Made by a program: the position numbers and the translations under genes. A stretch of 63,882 nt of DNA, counting the filler, from an uncultured Methanosarcinales archaeon (GTDB lineage Archaea; Nanobdellota; Nanobdellia; Woesearchaeales; CAYSVS01): assembly GCA_964434475.1 (NCBI GenBank). It is 32 parts of 32 records of this genome, joined end to end, with 100 filler letters (N's around TTAATTAATTAA, not from the genome) between each part and the next. Parts side by side here need not be neighbours in the genome. Positions count along the whole stretch, not along the records: positions 4,778 to 7,017 come from CAYSVS010000111.1; 31 more parts are not named here. One strand, 5' to 3'. Under the pieces are notes generated by a model that saw only the letters and a program-made list of their open reading frames with translations, did not search any database and was not told where the DNA came from. Shown here one piece after another: positions 2,847 to 11,592 of the stretch; the first letter of the stretch is position 1; each line of letters starts with the position of its first letter.

Positions 2847-4464
2847 ATCTCCAGAGTAAAAAATAGGAAAAGTGAATATAAAGTGTTATATTGTAGTTAT
2901 TTACAAAACAAAATCTAACACAAAATAATTCACCTTTCCGATGAAGAAATATAACAAAAAAAACAGAGCAAAACAAATAGTAAAAGCAGAATTTACGGCA
3001 GGAACGCTAACAAATTTCTCAGGGCTTAATGTCATTCATAATTTTGTAGAGAAAATAGATGTTAGAAAGCTATTGAATAATATCAGCATTGATACACACT
3101 ATAATATAAAATATGAGACAGGTGATATTCTGTCAATACTCGTTGAGGGTATATCATGCGGAATGAACAGATTGAGCAAAATAGAAAACTTTACTCTTGA
3201 CCCACTGGTACAAAAGCTATACGGACTGTCTGATAAGCTAAGTGATGCAACAATATCAGATCGTTTGAAAAGATGCACGATGAAACAGACATCAGAATAT
3301 ATGGACGTTATAGGTAAATTATCTGGTAAAGTGCATAACAAATTACAGACGAAATCAGATATATTAGACCTTGATTCATCGGTCAGCATAGTATATGGCA
3401 ATCAGGAAGGAGCAGCGAAAGGATACAACAATAAAAAAAAGGGCGCAAAAAGTTACCACCCATTATTTGGATTCTTAAACAGCACGAGAGAGTGTCTTTT
3501 GAGCTGGCTGCGTCCCGGAGATACATATACATCCAATGGAGCATCAGAATTCATCAGACAGGCATTTTCATTGATGCCGAAAAAGATAAGCAATCTTATG
3601 GTGAGAGCCGACAGCGGATTTTTCAGCGATAAGATCATAAGTGCAATAGAGCAAAGAAAAAACACTAAATATCTTATAAAAATAAAACTAAAAAATATGA
3701 CAGAAGTGCTTGTCTGTCAGAAATGGTATAGCGTTCCGGGAATGCCGAATATCCAGATATGCGATTTTGAATATCGACCAAAAACATGGAAGAAATCAAG
3801 ACATTTCTCAGCAGTAAGAATTTTGAAAAACGAAATAAAAGATGGAGTTCTCTTCACTCAAAAAGAATGGGAATATTTCTGTTACTGCACAAATATCGTT
3901 GACAATCCATTGCAGATACACAGGATATACGGCGATAGAGGAACGAGTGAGAATTGGATAGAGAACGTAAAAAAGCAGATGTTTGCCGGACAGCTTGTTA
4001 CCAATGATTTCTGGGCAAACGAAATGTTATGGCTTTCTAGCGTTATGGCATACAACATCAGCGTATGGATGCGTAAGCTCACCGACGATAAGACCTGGCA
4101 TGAAGAGCCGGCAACGTTTCGTGCTTGGTTTGTTCAACTTGCCGGAAAGGTTGCAAAAACCGGAAGGCAAACGCTTTTGAAGATGTACAAAGCGTATTAT
4201 TACAAAGACAGGTGGCGAAGAATTGATGAAGCAGTTGATATGCTGTGCTTCTAAATTATCGTAAACTATAAAATAATAATCACTAAACCTATAATACAAT
4301 GGATAGCTATGCCTTGATTATAACAAAATGGCAGTTTTCTCACATAATTCTTTGTTTTTCCTAGAAAAAAATAACATATATTCAATAATTCACACTTGAT
4401 GCTTGTTAATATGAGATATTCCTTGTATATTTTGTGAGTTTAATGGTTACTTTAGGAATTTAGG
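2842..4464 (+). mobile_element. IS1380-family insertion sequence
   Basis: Imperfect IRs CCTAAATCTCCAGAGTAA and CCTAAATTCCTAAAGTAA (14/18 identical), with TTA on both flanks. Confidence 0.8.
2941..4254 (+). CDS. IS1380-family transposase
   Basis: Motifs ILDLDSS, YGNQEGAAKGYN, SYHPL, LRPG, VRADSGF and YGDRGTSENWIENVK. Confidence 0.93.
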   Translation: MKKYNKKNRAKQIVKAEFTAGTLTNFSGLNVIHNFVEKIDVRKLLNNISIDTHYNIKYETGDILSILVEGISCGMNRLSKIENFTLDPLVQKLYGLSDKLSDATISDRLKRCTMKQTSEYMDVIGKLSGKVHNKLQTKSDILDLDSSVSIVYGNQEGAAKGYNNKKKGAKSYHPLFGFLNSTRECLLSWLRPGDTYTSNGASEFIRQAFSLMPKKISNLMVRADSGFFSDKIISAIEQRKNTKYLIKIKLKNMTEVLVCQKWYSVPGMPNIQICDFEYRPKTWKKSRHFSAVRILKNEIKDGVLFTQKEWEYFCYCTNIVDNPLQIHRIYGDRGTSENWIENVKKQMFAGQLVTNDFWANEMLWLSSVMAYNISVWMRKLTDDKTWHEEPATFRAWFVQLAGKVAKTGRQTLLKMYKAYYYKDRWRRIDEAVDMLCF

Positions 4465-4897
4465 TTATAGAATAAATCTCAAGAAGCATATACGAGCATG
4501 ATGGTCGAGAAATAATAGAATCACAATTTTTTTCAAAAAGTATATTTTTTCTATCCAAAATTGTCTTGTGTTTATTTTGCAATGGTCTTGATATATCAAG
4601 GTATGGGATACTGAGACGAAGGAATTGGTCTTTAATAAAAAGCATGATTCAGAGTCAGAAAAAACGACTCGTTGTAGNNNNNNNNNNNNNNNNNNNNNNN
4701 NNNNNNNNNNNNNNNNNNNNNTTAATTAATTAANNNNNNNNNNNNNNNNNNNNNNNNNNNNNNNNNNNNNNNNNNNNTGTTCAACTACCTAATTTTTTCG
4801 GTTTTTAGAAAAATCTGCACAACTCCAGTAAAGAATCTATTTTGGATTCGTTAAGCGGGCACTTCCTTTTCTCTAAATAAGCTTGGGGGCAAATTGA

Positions 4898-5072
4898 GCA
4901 TAACATCGCAACTATACGAAGTTTCAAGGGTGTCGAAAAGGCTTGGACTTACCTGAGACTCATCGGAGGTTAGGGTGGAAACGAAGTTTCAGGATGAAAT
5001 TTGGGAGAGGAACGAATTTTGCTTGGCAAAATAGCGAAGCGGTCGTTCCGAACTGCATATTTGCTGTTAGGC
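4898..5072 (-). other. attC-like recombination site
   Basis: On the minus strand it runs GCCTAAC (RYYYAAC) to GTTATGC, with imperfectly complementary outer arms that leave unpaired bases. Confidence 0.55.
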
Positions 5073-5219
5073 GTAGGCGGACTTTGATGTCCGACGGAGT
5101 TTTTGTCCCACCAAAAGGAAGCGACTACCCGTAAGGGTTGTGCTGACTGTATTTTTATTCTCGGTGTAGTTTTGGATTTAATATATAATTATCAATCGCT
5201 AAGCTACGCTTAGACTATT

Positions 5220-6254
5220 TTATTTCTCGGGGGCTAGTCTATTAGTACTATTTTTTTTTATTTTCTCTATAGTTCGTTGATTATACATTTTACCCCTATT
5301 ACTCATCAATAGAATATCTTTAGGTTGTTTATCACCCATATATTCTTTAAAGGAATTGATTAAATGTCCTGGGATTAACAGCATTTTTCGTTTATTGCCT
5401 TTCCATTTAGCAATCTCTAGTATTTGTTCTTCAATCCTAACATCTTTTAGTTTTATATTTCTAATTTCTCGGGGGCTTAAGTTCATATCAAATAATAATT
5501 GAAGAATAAATCTGTGTTTATTGTTATCTGTTAATCCAATTGCTTTACTTTTATCAATTTCTGGCTTTTTTTCAGCTTTTTCTTTATTGAATGTAAACCA
5601 TCTTTCATCAGTTCTGATCTTCCTTATCTTGTTTTTTATAATAGGTTTAGTTTCTATTAATGATTTATTGTCTCTTATATTTTGTCTTGCATCTCTTATT
5701 GCTCTTATTGACGTTGGTCTTATGTTTAAGAGATATTCTTCTTAATTTTGTATCCAGTTTAGGGCATTGTCAAGAAATCCACAGAAAATGGATTTATCTT
5801 TTTGGTAATATCCTAATGGAATTCTTATCTTTTGTTTTCCTGCATAAAGTTCTGCTGAATGATAGATGAATTGTTTTATTAATCTTTCAATGCTGTCTCT
5901 TTTTATTGGTTCTTCAAAGAAAATCCATAAGTGATAACCTCTTCCAGATTGTTCAATATGAGAATCAATGTTTACTTTGTTTAGGTTTTCTTTTGTTTTT
6001 AGCAGATTTTCTTGGATATCTTCTATTGGCTCATTATTGTGAGCATCATAATCTATTGCTAGCCATTTTACAGTTCCATCTGGTTTTTGTGGCTGTAAGC
6101 CAATTGTGATTTTTCTTTCTAAGTGTTTTTGGATTAAGTCTTTGGTTACTTCTTTGTTTTCAGTTAGCCATGTTCTTCCATTGTGGATTATGTAAAGAGA
6201 ATTGTTGTAGAGTAAGAGTTTGCAGTATTTTTGTATGGCCTGTTTTGATAGCAT
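5220..6254 (-). pseudogene. AEP (TOTE-type) primase domain fused to a degenerate tyrosine-recombinase-like domain, split by one in-frame TAA at 5742-5744
   Basis: AEP motifs WLAIDYD and EQSGRGYHLWIFF. The same frame stays open after the TAA into KHRFILQLLFDMNLSPREIRNIKLKDV...KGNKRK, which resembles a Xer catalytic domain. Confidence 0.7.
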
Positions 6255-6275
6255 ATAATCTTGATTATACTCGAT

Positions 6276-6289
6276 ATATTTATAAATAT
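6276..6289. promoter_or_regulatory. Palindromic archaeal-type TATA box between divergent genes
   Basis: ATATTTATAAATAT is self-complementary and sits about 20-25 bp upstream of both ATG 6254 (-) and ATG 6311 (+). Confidence 0.5.
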
Positions 6290-6310
6290 CTTTAATATTC
6301 AATAACCATT

Positions 6311-6757
6311 ATGACTCAAAAGGAAACAGATGCAAGGATAATTATAGATAGAAAGTTAAAAGAAGTTGGATGGGATATTGAAAATAAAAGACAGGTCGAT
6401 ACTGAAAAGGCTACTACTGATGGTAGGGCAGACTATGTTTTAAAAGATTCAAGAGGAAGACCTCTTGCCGTTATTGAAGCAAAGAAATTTTCGATTGAAC
6501 CATCTACAGCAAAAAGTCAGGCAGAGAATTACGCTAAAGAATTAGGTGTAGATTTTATTTTCTTAAGTAATGGTGAAATTATCTATTTTTGGGATTATAA
6601 TTTTGCTCCTGAAAGATTGATAGATGCATTTTTCAGTAGAGCTGATCTTGTTATCAAAAATGAAAACATAAAACAAAAACAATCAAAATCAAAAGAAAAA
6701 ATAGATCATGTTTTTGATGCTTTGATGTATAGGGCTTTTAATGGGGGATTAGCATGA
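6311..6757 (+). pseudogene. hsdR: Type I R-M remnant: HsdR N-terminal nuclease domain joined to an HsdS-like C-terminal tail
   Basis: ETDARIIIDRKLKEVGW, GRADYVL, AVIEAKK and FLSNG are HsdR N-terminal motifs. The end [17 protein letters not shown] resembles HsdS C-termini. Confidence 0.7.
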
Positions 6758-7017
6758 AAATAGGTAGAAATGCTCTGTGTCCGTGCGGTTCTGGAAAAAA
6801 ATATAAGAAATGCTGCTTAGGCAAAGAGAAATCTGAGACCAATCCAAAAGAAGATGTTTTTTTAACTGAGCCTATACCAGATTATGGTGTTCCAAAAATT
6901 AAAGATGATTTTTTTGATGATAAGTTTCCTAAGATGCCTACAGCTGCTGCACTTCAGCATTTTATGATGTCTCAGAAAGGAATTGATAATTTAATAGGTG
7001 AAATAGTGAATAAGATT
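6754..7017 (+). CDS. SEC-C metal-binding domain protein (3' truncated)
   Basis: [20 protein letters not shown] motif. Confidence 0.85.
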
Positions 7018-7131
7018 NNNNNNNNNNNNNNNNNNNNNNNNNNNNNNNNNNNNNNNNNNNNTTAATTAATTAANNNNNNNNNNNNNNNNNNNNNNNNNNN
7101 NNNNNNNNNNNNNNNNNCCTCAAAGGTCTAA

Positions 7132-7194: not shown

Positions 7195-8283
7195 ATGAAA
7201 CGTCCCTATTACATTTTCAGCATCGGCCGCATCCGCCGACAGCAGAACACCCTGTTCTTTGAAAAAGCCGCGGATGCCGAGGCCGAGGAACCAGTGCAGG
7301 TCGAGCCGGAAGACGAGGTATTGGTGGACAATGCCGATTTTGAAGCCGAACGCGACGAGCGCGAGCGCGTCCAGAAACGCGTCATCCCCATCGAGGATAT
7401 CGAATCGCTCTACTGTTTTGGTGAAATTACTCTCAATTCCAAACTGCTTAATTTTCTGGCACAGCAGCGCATCCCGGCGCATTTTTTCAACTATTACGGC
7501 TTTTACAACGGCAGCTTTGTGCCGCGCGATTATCTCCTCAGCGGCGAGGTGCTGGTTAAACAGGTCCAGTTTTACACCGACACGGACAAACGTTTGCCCC
7601 TGGCCAAGGAAATGATTTTGGGCGGCGTGGACAATATGCTCAAAAACCTGCATTATTACCAAAACCGCGGCCGCGAGCTGAACGAGCCCATCCGCATCAT
7701 GCAACACGAACAACGCACCATCCAAAACGCCCGATCGATCAACGAGCTGATGACCGCCGAGGGCCGGCTGCGCGGCGGTTACTTTTCCGCGTGGGATACC
7801 ATCATTGACGCCGATTTCAAGTTCGAGCAGCGCAGCCGCCGTCCCCCTAAGAATGCTGTCAATGCTCTTATTTCTTTTGGCAACAGCATGCTGTACACCG
7901 CTGTCCTCGGCGAGGTCTACCACACTCAACTCAACCCGACCATCAGCTACCTGCACGAGCCCGGCGCCCGGCGTTACTCGCTCTGTCTCGATCTCGCCGA
8001 AATTTTCAAACCCACCCTGGTGGACCGGATGATTTTNNNNNNNNNNAACCAGGGCCAAATCAAAAAAAATCATTTTGAGGAAAAACTGAATTTTTGCTAT
8101 TTAAACGAGGCGGGACGTAAAATCGTGGTGCAGGCCTGGGACGAACGGCTGAAAACCACCATCAAACACCGGCGGCTGAATCGGAATGTTTCGTACCGCC
8201 GGCTGCTGCGCCTGGAAGCCTATAAACTCATCAAACACATCACCGCGGACAAGGTGTACAAAGCCTTTCGCATGTGGTGGTAA
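7195..8283 (+). CDS. cas1: CRISPR-associated endonuclease Cas1, type I-B
   Basis: YYIFSIGRIRRQQNTLFFE, FFNYYGFYNGSF, RRPPKNAVNALISFGN, LDLAEIFKP and a C-terminal MWW. There is a 10-N gap at 8037-8046. Confidence 0.96.
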   Translation: MKRPYYIFSIGRIRRQQNTLFFEKAADAEAEEPVQVEPEDEVLVDNADFEAERDERERVQKRVIPIEDIESLYCFGEITLNSKLLNFLAQQRIPAHFFNYYGFYNGSFVPRDYLLSGEVLVKQVQFYTDTDKRLPLAKEMILGGVDNMLKNLHYYQNRGRELNEPIRIMQHEQRTIQNARSINELMTAEGRLRGGYFSAWDTIIDADFKFEQRSRRPPKNAVNALISFGNSMLYTAVLGEVYHTQLNPTISYLHEPGARRYSLCLDLAEIFKPTLVDRMIXXXXNQGQIKKNHFEEKLNFCYLNEAGRKIVVQAWDERLKTTIKHRRLNRNVSYRRLLRLEAYKLIKHITADKVYKAFRMWW

Positions 8284-8292
8284 GGGGGCTGT

Positions 8293-8556
8293 ATGTACAT
8301 TTTACTGGTTTATGATGTGGAGGAAAAACGCGTCGCCAAGGCTCTGAAAACCTGCCGGGCCTATCTGCACTGGGTGCAAAACAGCGTCTTTGAGGGCGAA
8401 TTGACCGAAGGCCAATTGAAAGAATTTCTCGCGAAACTGAAAAAAGTCATTAGCGTGAAAAAGGATTCCGTCCTCCTTTACAAAATGTCGTCGGATTCCG
8501 CCTTTGAAAAGCAAATCATCGGCCAGGAAAAGGCGCCGACCGACAGTTTCATCTAG
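8293..8556 (+). CDS. cas2: CRISPR-associated endonuclease Cas2
   Basis: MYILLVYDV...VQNSVFEGEL, directly after cas1. Confidence 0.96.
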   Translation: MYILLVYDVEEKRVAKALKTCRAYLHWVQNSVFEGELTEGQLKEFLAKLKKVISVKKDSVLLYKMSSDSAFEKQIIGQEKAPTDSFI

Positions 8557-10015: not shown

Positions 10016-10915
10016 ATGAAGATCCTACTGCTTGGAAGCACAGGAATGCTTGGAAGTGACTGCAAACAGGTCCTTGAAAGGGAACATGAAATACTCGCGC
10101 CCGACAGAAACACTTTGGATATAGTGAGCTGGGACAATGTTATCGAGACCATGCAGGCTGTATCCCCGGAAACGGTTATCAACTGTGCAGGCATGACGAG
10201 TTTTGATGAATGTGAAAACGAAGAATTGTCCGTCCGGAAAATCAATGTTGAAGGCCCAAGAAATCTGGCCCAGGGATGTGCCAGATTTGATTGCAAATTG
10301 ATACATATATCAAGTTATTGCGTGTATAACGGGTTGAAAAGCATACCCCAGCCATATTTCGAAGATGATACTGTGGATCCATTATCAGGATACGGTAGCA
10401 GTAAAGTTTACAGCGAAACAGCCGTTAGAGAAAATGCTTCCCGCTATATCATTGTACGTACAGGCTGGCTTTATGGGATTACTGGGGATAATTTTATTAC
10501 TGATCTATTATTAAAGGCTTTTCAAGGTGGAAGAAAAAAGCAAACTATTTATGTAGAAGAAGACCAGTACGGATCTCCTACGTGGACATATCGTCTTGCT
10601 TACCAGCTTCGGGAAATGCTTAGCGAACACGTACACGGGACATATCACGCAACTTCAGAAGGATACTGCAGCCTGTTAGGTTTCGCCGAAGCTGTCTTAA
10701 ATAAGCTGAACGTCAAAGCTAATCTTGAGGGGCTGAAAAGCTCTGAAATACAAAAATACATTCAAAGGCCGTGTAACGGGATTTTGGAGAATCGTCTTCT
10801 GAAAAAGCAGGGCATTAATATAATGCAGGATTGGCAGAGCGATCTGGACCTTTTTTTGGATCAATACGGAGAAGAATTGATAAGAAAAACCAAAAATATC
10901 TTGAAAAGCAATTAG
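10016..10915 (+). CDS. rfbD: dTDP-4-dehydrorhamnose reductase family protein
   Basis: MKILLLGSTGMLG, YGSSK catalytic motif, RTGWLYG and DQYGSPT. Confidence 0.85.
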   Translation: MKILLLGSTGMLGSDCKQVLEREHEILAPDRNTLDIVSWDNVIETMQAVSPETVINCAGMTSFDECENEELSVRKINVEGPRNLAQGCARFDCKLIHISSYCVYNGLKSIPQPYFEDDTVDPLSGYGSSKVYSETAVRENASRYIIVRTGWLYGITGDNFITDLLLKAFQGGRKKQTIYVEEDQYGSPTWTYRLAYQLREMLSEHVHGTYHATSEGYCSLLGFAEAVLNKLNVKANLEGLKSSEIQKYIQRPCNGILENRLLKKQGINIMQDWQSDLDLFLDQYGEELIRKTKNILKSN

Positions 10916-11592
10916 ATTTTTCTGCCAATCACAGCTCCCTCGTAGATAGCCGCCTTTGCGCTTCTGGGTTCAAGGCAGTCTCCGATGCGGTAAACGGGGA
11001 TACCCAGGCGGCTTGATCCTTCTTGTAGGCTGTTTTCGGGTCTCACTCCGGTCACTAACACCACAAGGTCGGCCTCTATGAAGTGCTCGCCTGAATCACG
11101 GTTGCGTGTCACAACCCCTTTTTCACTAATGGAGCAAACCTCGAAGCCGGTCATCAGGGTGACGCCTCGTTCCTGAAGCCTTTCGAGAATCATCTTGCGC
11201 GTCACCGCTTCAATGCGGGGGCCTATTCGCATGAGTTTTTCGACTACCGTAACCGGACAGCCGTTTTCCGATAGATACAGAGCCAATTCACAGCCGGTTG
11301 AGCCCCCTCCGATGATAACGCATGAACCACTTTTAGGAGGAGCTTGCAAAAGCACTTGGGAAAGCGGCCTCACAATAGGGCTTTTTATGCCGGGAACAGG
11401 CGGATAGTCAGGGACTGAACCTGTGGCCAGCACGAGCACGTCCGGATTCACCTCAGCCAAGGTGTTAGGTGTTACTTGCACGCCCAGATGCAAGCGGACA
11501 CCATATTTTTCCGCCTGTCTTTTTTGATATTCGATGAGGGAAAGCAGTTCGCGTTTGTAGCTTGTAACAGCCCCCAGAAGCAGTTGTCCTCC
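10912..11592 (-). CDS. NADH:flavin oxidoreductase (2,4-dienoyl-CoA reductase-like), C-terminal part
   Basis: LATGS, IIGGGSTGCE and IGDCLEPR...AIYEG motifs; 5' truncated by the contig end. Confidence 0.85.
   Translation of the reverse strand, partial: GGQLLLGAVTSYKRELLSLIEYQKRQAEKYGVRLHLGVQVTPNTLAEVNPDVLVLATGSVPDYPPVPGIKSPIVRPLSQVLLQAPPKSGSCVIIGGGSTGCELALYLSENGCPVTVVEKLMRIGPRIEAVTRKMILERLQERGVTLMTGFEVCSISEKGVVTRNRDSGEHFIEADLVVLVTGVRPENSLQEGSSRLGIPVYRIGDCLEPRSAKAAIYEGAVIGRKI

Follow-up and report, generated by a model that had tools for sequence, protein, structure and literature searches.

The window analyzed here is a whole 63,882-nt stretch of DNA from an uncultured archaeon (GenBank assembly GCA_964434475.1). 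It consists of approximately 30 short pieces of roughly 1.6–2.3 kb each, joined by spacers (N44 + 12 A/T + N44). The pieces lie between 0.27 and 0.72 in GC content, and adjacent ones may therefore derive from different organisms. The piece at 4778–7017 (2240 nt, GC 0.32; an N spacer begins at 7018) carries on its minus strand the gene examined in this study (5220–6254), which encodes a primase-polymerase (Prim-Pol) domain of the AEP type followed by the first part of a tyrosine-recombinase catalytic domain. This fusion is denoted AEP-IntN. Two open reading frames (ORFs) of the minus strand, 5742–6302 (186 aa) and 5220–5486 (88 aa), formed a single frame when 6302–5220 was translated, in agreement with an original prediction that had been made from the sequence of the window. 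The sole internal stop is a TAA at 5744–5742, residue 187 as counted from the TTG at 6302. It is followed by 255 nt, corresponding to the predicted 85 sense codons without ATG, GTG, or TTG, which lead up to the ATG at 5486 and into KHRFILQLLFDMNLSPREIRN...KGNKRK; altogether, 173 codons are open beyond the internal TAA. Judging from the N-termini of homologues, the ATG at 6254 is the likely start, which matches the end coordinate given in the prediction. The native stop is the TAA at 5222–5220, leading to a protein of ~344 aa if the internal TAA is sense, and no continuation of the recombinase domain was found past 5220 in any of the three frames.

Gln is encoded at the position of the in-frame TAA (5742–5744, minus strand) in 27 of 27 homologues, which indicates a single CAA-to-TAA transition (one C-to-T change) in the window copy. 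A contig from the independent assembly of run X1 (depth ~11) spans 5095–5829 and exhibited zero differences from the window, TAA included. This comparison was made at the contig level, where rare variants are dropped, so that a minor CAA variant could escape it; none was present among the variants listed. One nonsense codon hence inactivates the window copy or at the least interrupts it; this codon probably represents a recent nonsense change, or else a polymorphism or an error. There is a slim chance that this TAA is read as sense by recoding or read-through, or that it is a sequencing or assembly error. The frame that stays open far beyond it and the ratio of nonsynonymous to synonymous substitutions (dN/dS), which is as low past the stop as before it when the window is compared with locus L006 (0.12 overall, with no relaxation past the stop), fit such an explanation. 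However, the gene's own terminator is also TAA, the X1 assembly is identical with no variant among those listed, and this piece gave no hint of another genetic code.

The AEP-IntN family and its two halves

For the homologue search, the query was the translation read through the stop (given as X), and lengths of 198–630 aa were admitted. This gave us 27 homologues at 55–84% identity, 23 of which are 342–361 aa long, and both PF22548 and PF00589 are present in 19 of the 27 according to precomputed annotation. Intact fused homologues in DPANN-type metagenome-assembled genomes (MAGs) were thus obtained, as the prediction had called for. Their sources are small archaeal MAGs labelled Woesearchaeota, Nanoarchaeota, or "Methanosarcinales"; what had been called a contig is the 2240-nt piece of the window. 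All full-length homologues end in ...LAPEK or a few residues further on, as does the window copy. This shared C-terminal end, together with the invariable Gln at the stop codon, indicates that the fusion, as well as the shortness of its recombinase part, is native to the family. In a profile search against 1.84 billion representatives, both halves were covered by two clusters only, namely P0024 and the more distant P0029. The latter forms a separate 50%-identity cluster that is cut off at the same place, although it has a different tail and ALQLTAKE in place of the Arg box. A further 20 profile matches scanned with Pfam were AEPs with other partners or ordinary integrases. A viral origin was also considered and rejected, as the single match on a viral contig (35% identical over 48 residues) is no relative.

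Selection was evaluated for seven pairs by the Nei-Gojobori method. The dN/dS values were 0.04–0.17 for the AEP part (7 pairs), 0.04–0.28 for the linker (6 pairs; one was saturated), and 0.06–0.37 for codons 273–355, which belong to IntN (7 pairs), while they were erratic in the 17-codon stretch 256–272, reaching 3.15 for the window versus L006. Values of 0.04–0.37 in the segments of at least 68 codons indicate that the family is functional and under purifying selection.

The AEP domain of the window copy occupies 5667–6254 (minus strand), with the internal TAA located within its last helices. Consistent with the prediction that the first half carries the AEP motifs DxD and SGRGYH, both are present in the translation, and the N-terminal part matched PF22548 (AEP-TOTE) with an E-value of 7.8e-19 (68.6 bits, the cut-off being 27). 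In an alignment of 28 sequences, D84 and D86 of motif I, AIDYDAH (DxD), are nearly invariant, and S119, G120, R121, G122, and H124 of motif II, SGRGYH (SxH), are invariant. E151 in SAE(L/I)Y is also invariant, which makes it, by alignment only, a candidate for the acidic residue of motif III. A model structure of the intact homologue P0004 was constructed with AlphaFold2 from 24 sequences (mean pLDDT 84). Residues 1–196 of this model were superimposed on the CAPP Prim-Pol (7nqf_B) with a Z-score of 25.6 and a root-mean-square deviation (rmsd) of 2.2 over 195 residues, at 26% identity. Judged by sequence and model, the AEP domain is active-looking, being of the Prim-Pol type with intact catalytic motifs. 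It is followed by a basic, Lys/Arg-rich linker (5574–5666, minus strand), for which pLDDT was below 50 at model residues 218–228.

IntN itself is encoded by 5223–5573 (minus strand) and represents a tyrosine-recombinase catalytic domain of which only the first ~115 residues are present, an assignment based on PF00589, the structural match, and dN/dS. As predicted for the second half, the sequence past the stop matched PF00589 (Phage_integrase; E-value 3.1e-8, 34 bits with the cut-off at 27.1), and the match covers positions 22–117 of the 172 in the profile only. The prediction that structural modeling would identify a recombinase fold also held. Model residues 228–344 correspond to the first half of tyrosine-recombinase catalytic domains, namely to residues 99–221 of 266 in archaeal XerA 4a8e (Z-score 12.1), 103–224 of 280 in archaeal XerA 5hxy (11.9), 100–262 of 317 in the integron integrase 2a3v (10.9), and 111–237 of 271 in XerD 1a0p (10.7). 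Alignment with homologues and integrases further confirmed the predicted replacement of GLRxSE by NLSPRE and the lack of the region containing HxxR and the catalytic Tyr. The box I sequence is NLSP(R/Q/L)E, in which Ser takes the place of Arg-I in 26 of the 27 homologues and in the window copy, while Asn does so in P0022. The IntN chain stops (...LAPEK) about three residues ahead of the HxxR position of integrase sequences, which leaves it without HxxR, Arg-II, and the Tyr nucleophile. Without Arg-I, HxxR, and Tyr, AEP-IntN therefore performs no DNA cutting or joining by the tyrosine-recombinase mechanism. No SAM-like core-binding domain was matched by Pfam in AEP-IntN, and the linker was modeled with confidence only in part. 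Two of the proteins compared, P0088 (314 aa) and P0127 (346 aa), contain two Phage_integrase stretches each in Pfam; the IntN region matches them at 8–114 and 25–130, and their best Pfam stretches lie at 173–304 and 176–333, respectively. This suggests a partial integrase domain preceding a fuller one.

Two explanations had been offered for the architecture, either DNA targeting by a dead recombinase fold or a decayed mobile-element fusion. The former is favored here, though as an inferred role, and the latter does not hold for the family. The nonsense codon of the window copy and the incomplete recombinase part might be taken as marks of a pseudogenized remnant without function. At the family level this is contradicted, and we give it hardly any weight. 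The 27 homologues are intact, the catalytic AEP residues are invariant, the fold is confidently predicted, and dN/dS is low, including in the IntN codons. The C-terminal end is shared, P0029 has the same truncation, and only the window copy is damaged; decay may apply to that copy alone.

G-run sites and attC-like hairpins around the gene

The decisive context, beyond what the prediction could draw on, consists of conserved inverted noncoding elements and attC-like hairpins around the gene. The 3′ part of the gene contains an exact 14-nt direct repeat, AGCCCCCGAGAAAT, on the minus strand. Site B′ (5464–5477) lies inside the codons for LSPREI, and site A′ (5222–5235), which is the same 14-mer, overlaps the last codons (LAPEK) and the stop. 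On the strand opposite to the gene, the G-run site reads CTCGGGGGCT. Both sites are kept in 12 of 12 tabulated sources that hold the 3′ part of the gene (11 loci and the window), and site B′ is mirrored in an inverted element located upstream. In the L001 group, an identical G-to-A change is found in A′, in B′, and in the upstream copy, and CTT occurs in all sites. Similarly, CGAGGGGG is found in the B sites of L002, L003, L005, and L011, with the upstream copy matching within each locus. In L004 (locus positions 5693–5735 and 10773–11035), the A and B sites of the two ends have their left halves interchanged (x|p, y|q versus y|p, x|q), which looks like the pattern that a crossover within GGGGG would give.

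The coincidence of the protein end with a repeated site brings to mind an SSV-type split integrase, in which only an excised circular element would carry the full gene, integration having cut it at an internal att site, A′, so that the C-terminal half would lie at the other end. In line with this, the protein stops just ahead of the HxxR box, and the tails past LAPE vary in length, as if they entered foreign DNA. Nevertheless, we consider it very improbable. No longer form was present among the 27 homologues, even though the search admitted 198–630 aa, or in the best 150 representatives of the 1.84 billion proteins, 20 of which were Pfam-checked. No isolated C-terminal integrase piece was detected in five genomes at E ≤ 0.01, a search that a short piece could escape. 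Moreover, the repeats flanking the unit are inverted, not direct, and P0029 is cut at the same point with a different tail.

Immediately 3′ of the gene, a conserved noncoding element of ~115–150 nt was aligned in 15 of 15 loci, as far as the contigs reach, with conservation far above that of the protein. In the window, the conserved 115-nt stretch termed mod1 (5105–5219, minus strand) was delimited from alignments and consists of TAGTCT.., TTAAATCCAAAAcTACACCGAGAA, a variable hairpin, and GGTGGGAC; a 23-mer within mod1 is exact in 12 of 17 sources. This is followed by an A5 run and a small hairpin (5073–5104, minus strand) with the conserved loop ATCAAAG and compensatory changes in its stem. 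On the strand antisense to the gene, an invariant T5 run follows this small hairpin. As to what the downstream element might be, ARAGORN found no tRNA, and Rfam gave no pertinent match for the piece at E ≤ 1; applied to four loci, Rfam detected only a distant tRNA. A tRNA or other known RNA as the downstream target was hence rejected, as was a multi-copy repeat within the MAGs, for which only 1–2 matches per genome were obtained.

Beyond the small hairpin lies M2 (4892–5072, minus strand), a larger hairpin that carries at its base GCCTAAC (5066–5072) and GTTATGC (4898–4904), then TCAATT, and that was identified by covariation and by the models R1 and R2. M2 has paired inverted repeats, a covarying second stem, asymmetric spacers, and a variable interior. 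Among 17 distinct sequences, 11 of 22 pairs showed changes on both sides, a score reached in 0 of 500 shuffles, and 87.5% of the cells were paired in the hairpins as compared with 33–43% in slid controls. Folding is more favorable for the strand antisense to the gene (−54 versus −34 kcal/mol), which forms many G-U pairs. Downstream of M2 in L009 lie three units, all in one orientation, that consist of a single ORF and a related hairpin at its end; together with M2, this makes four sites on one strand. L010 has two sites, the second of which comes after two ORFs, and the window piece ends 114 nt beyond its first hairpin site. A crude scan for TAAC...GTTA was no better than shuffles at a score of 14; scores of at least 16 were kept, and the scan was later replaced by R2, which was built from hairpin sites of the L009/L010 type. 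R2 gave 25 matches in 24 sources, all of those in AEP loci being on the strand of the gene, and it scored the window site at 39.7 bits (E-value 4e-7), while R1 gave 69.5 bits. The ACTTCG motif recurs on the gene strand in all the related hairpins. An 11-nt direct repeat, ACGAAGTTTCA, is located at 4916–4926 and 4981–4991 (plus strand) in the variable interior of the window hairpin.

Features of this kind are known from integrons. A published account (PMC8352920) describes attC sites as R″/L″...L′/R′ inverted repeats with two spacers and a variable loop, and states that the bottom strand is used in recombination, whose resolution needs replication. By their anatomy, covariation, and co-oriented ORF-plus-site arrays, the present hairpins are attC-like at the sequence level. 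Eight of the 15 contigs, the window piece included, end 52–453 nt past the gene, and in four of four runs the summed depth of the hairpin core was far above that of the gene (e.g., 274 versus ~10 in X4). Both observations are explained by the hairpins being attC-like sites. The hairpin core was found in just 4 of 151 genomes of the class, and a universal host RNA gene as the integration target was rejected on that ground.

Seven of the 15 loci have a second conserved noncoding element, located 1.4–5.4 kb upstream of the gene; in the other eight, the upstream side was too short or not resolved. Read inward, it carries the blocks TTTTTCTTCCACC, TTCTCGGT, and TTTTGGATTTAA as well as site A and site B. 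Because these are the same blocks as those of the downstream element when read on the opposite strand, the two elements are inverted repeats. Neither the upstream inverted element nor a second hairpin has a copy elsewhere in the 63,882-nt window. No convincing direct repeat that would represent a target-site duplication was found outside the elements in four cases. The locus L033 also has inverted inner elements, with direct outer hairpins. Its cargo comprises radical-SAM genes and a double-wHTH regulator, which resemble those of L002 in the opposite orientation (two radical-SAM genes and the regulator at 1136–5632 of L002 and 3492–7332 of L033), the AEP gene being present in L002 only. At 1398–1597 (G005:C84), locus L021 has a large hairpin by itself, with neither mod1 nor G-run sites, immediately behind a TrmB-like gene.

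The paired elements might instead be small RNAs transcribed towards the gene, whose G-rich 3′ ends would prime or template the Prim-Pol in the style of a retron or of ColE1 RNA II. The covariation in the hairpins, the G-U pairs and invariant T5 run that favor the antisense strand, the inward orientation of both elements with G-runs at their ends, and the existence of solo copies are all in keeping with this idea. However, attC-type hairpins of single-stranded DNA predict covariation and strand bias equally well, and no Rfam family was matched. In addition, the outer hairpins of L033 are direct while its inner elements are inverted, so that its two "RNAs" would not be equivalent. Overall, we regard transcription into such RNAs as quite unlikely.

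The genes between the elements change fast and are mostly defence-like. Neighbor genes are not conserved, and AEPs that are 86–92% identical are accompanied by different cargo and outer flanks. In the window, a small protein of the HSDR_N or PD-(D/E)xK type is encoded at the cargo position (6311–6757, plus strand), as judged from PF13588 and PF04313 (E-value 3e-9) and from the N-terminal region of PADLOC REase_I (E-value 6e-10). It is followed by a SEC-C-motif protein (6754–7017, plus strand; PF02810, E-value 4.5e-10), which is truncated where the contig piece ends. Many of the genes at the cargo position, immediately upstream of AEP-IntN, matched defence models, namely a ThsB-type TIR protein, IetA, a LmuB/GajA-like ATPase with a nuclease, DUF262/HEC-05, HIRAN-VRR_NUC, RmuC, and, in the window, the HSDR_N protein. 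Integron cassettes have been reported to be rich in defence systems (10.1101/2024.07.02.601686). The preceding piece of the window contains an intact DDE transposase (2941–4254, plus strand; PF13701, E-value 1.8e-53). The next piece carries a Cas1-like gene (7195–8283) and a Cas2-like gene (8293–8556), both on the plus strand, with GC 0.45–0.53 and a 10-N gap; they are unlinked to the AEP gene, and their names were given from translations only.

The gene might then be a cargo or effector of a defence island of the TOTE or CAPP kind, and its position beside the elements would be historical. The best Pfam match is named "TOTE conflict system AEP", PADLOC gave weak CRISPR-associated PrimPol matches (E-value 1e-9), the neighbors are defence-like, and the same flanks also occur around units that lack the gene. 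Four observations speak against such a role. The element 3′ of the gene is conserved in every locus as far as the contigs reach, and the coding sequence itself holds site B′ and ends in A′, both of which co-vary with the upstream inverted copy. No TPR, OB/CSD, TBP, or Cas protein was found among 36 proteins scanned (6 of the window and 30 neighbors from five loci). Furthermore, PF22548 is not specific for TOTE because it also matches AEPs fused to PriCT, D5_N, or ResIII domains. We consider a cargo origin unlikely, though not negligible. Membership in TOTE or CAPP systems was rejected, since the partner genes are absent from the neighborhoods scanned.

Relation to known systems and possible role

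Among solved structures, the AEP half is most like CAPP of Marinitoga sp. 1137 (7nqf, 7p9j, 7nqd, and 7nqe), with Z-scores of 25.1–25.6 and an rmsd of 2.2–2.6 at 26% identity. Each is a Prim-Pol type AEP located next to machinery for DNA integration. They differ in that cas genes are absent among the 36 neighbors of AEP-IntN, whose partner is a dead recombinase half fused in cis. TOTE systems share with AEP-IntN the PF22548 match, a family named after them. Such conflict systems consist of TPR, OB, TBP, and Effector, as given in PMC12458937, whereas the TPR, OB/CSD, and TBP partners are absent from the AEP-IntN neighborhoods (36 proteins). IntN resembles Xer proteins and integrases in its half-domain superposition (Z-scores 10.7–12.1) and in sequence similarity to integrases of ~270 aa (E-value ~1e-12). 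Unlike these enzymes, it has Ser at Arg-I, lacks HxxR, Arg-II, and Tyr, gave no Pfam match to a SAM-like core-binding domain, and is not a recombinase.

Replication proteins of the AEP type (with PriCT-1/2 or HTH; RepB′ of RSF1010) are alike in combining a primase with a DNA-recognition module, and related AEPs from the deep profile search carry PriCT or helicase domains. AEP fusions with DNA-binding modules were described by Kazlauskas et al. 2018; a recombinase-derived module is absent among the fusions in the available part of that work and among the 20 relatives scanned here. Integrons and CALINs (clusters of attC sites lacking integron integrases) are similar to the present loci in having hairpins in which inverted repeats with spacers enclose a variable loop, single ORFs in the same orientation as these hairpins, and a patchy distribution (4 of 151 genomes). 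They differ in that the gene-adjacent hairpin has a conserved interior and is accompanied by mod1 and G-run sites, and no IntI was detected above the cut-off in five genomes. Archaeal integrons, for the most part CALINs, have been reported, Nanoarchaeota included (Ghaly et al. 2022, Sci Adv), in an article that nowhere uses the word "primase". The supplementary data of the same study may list attC sites from the same MAGs. Supplementary files aside, neither the fusion of an AEP with an inactive recombinase domain nor a primase at archaeal cassette arrays turned up in our literature searches, in keeping with the earlier remark that no description of this architecture was known.

Prim-Pols are usually aimed by helicase, PriCT, zinc, or HTH modules. 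AEP-IntN would then be a Prim-Pol with a novel targeting module, in which the dead recombinase half may serve in DNA recognition. The best overall explanation, to which we assign an even chance, is an active Prim-Pol tethered by the dead recombinase domain to the G-run sites or hairpins. The recognition module would hold the enzyme at the G-run sites or at folded hairpins at the unit ends, and the Prim-Pol would then prime or fill in where single-strand recombination or mobilization of the unit needs synthesis. A parallel may be drawn with CAPP, the closest solved relative, which is thought to serve Cas1-Cas2 integration. A second possible analogy is the replication step required by bottom-strand attC recombination. 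A more specific version, in which AEP-IntN is the DNA-synthesis module of an archaeal integron-like system, held on folded single-strand recombination sites or on the G-run end sites and either supplying the replication step or driving the copying of a new kind of cassette unit with inverted repeats at its ends and defence genes between attC-like sites, is put forward only tentatively and is doubtful at present.

Several points weigh against a tethered Prim-Pol. The link between IntN and the sites is one of position, from which we infer binding and priming. The neighbors might be a plain defence island in which the gene is one more cargo item, and the window copy carries a stop, so that it may not be expressed. 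The sites are independent of AEP-IntN, since L033 shows that units of the same type exist without the gene and the hairpin is present in G154, G112, and G082, which have no AEP-IntN at all. With respect to the integron side, the hairpins were compared by use of the R-box consensus RYYYAAC/GTTRRRY. The interior of the hairpin next to the gene is unusually conserved for an attC site. No integron integrase (TIGR02249) was found above the 265-bit cut-off in any of five genomes, which are incomplete MAGs; the TIGR02249 matches in these genomes are split around the IntI-specific segment.

AEP-IntN represents a clear case of domain reuse, in which a recombinase half has kept its fold and lost its chemistry. 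By its fixed place next to attC-like hairpins, it connects the priming of DNA with recombination of the cassette type in small archaeal genomes; as CAPP and Cas1-Cas2 form a parallel case, Prim-Pols may have been paired with integration machinery more than once. Should the link be functional, both the completion of single-strand recombination intermediates and the movement of defence cassettes in DPANN-type archaea would become testable.

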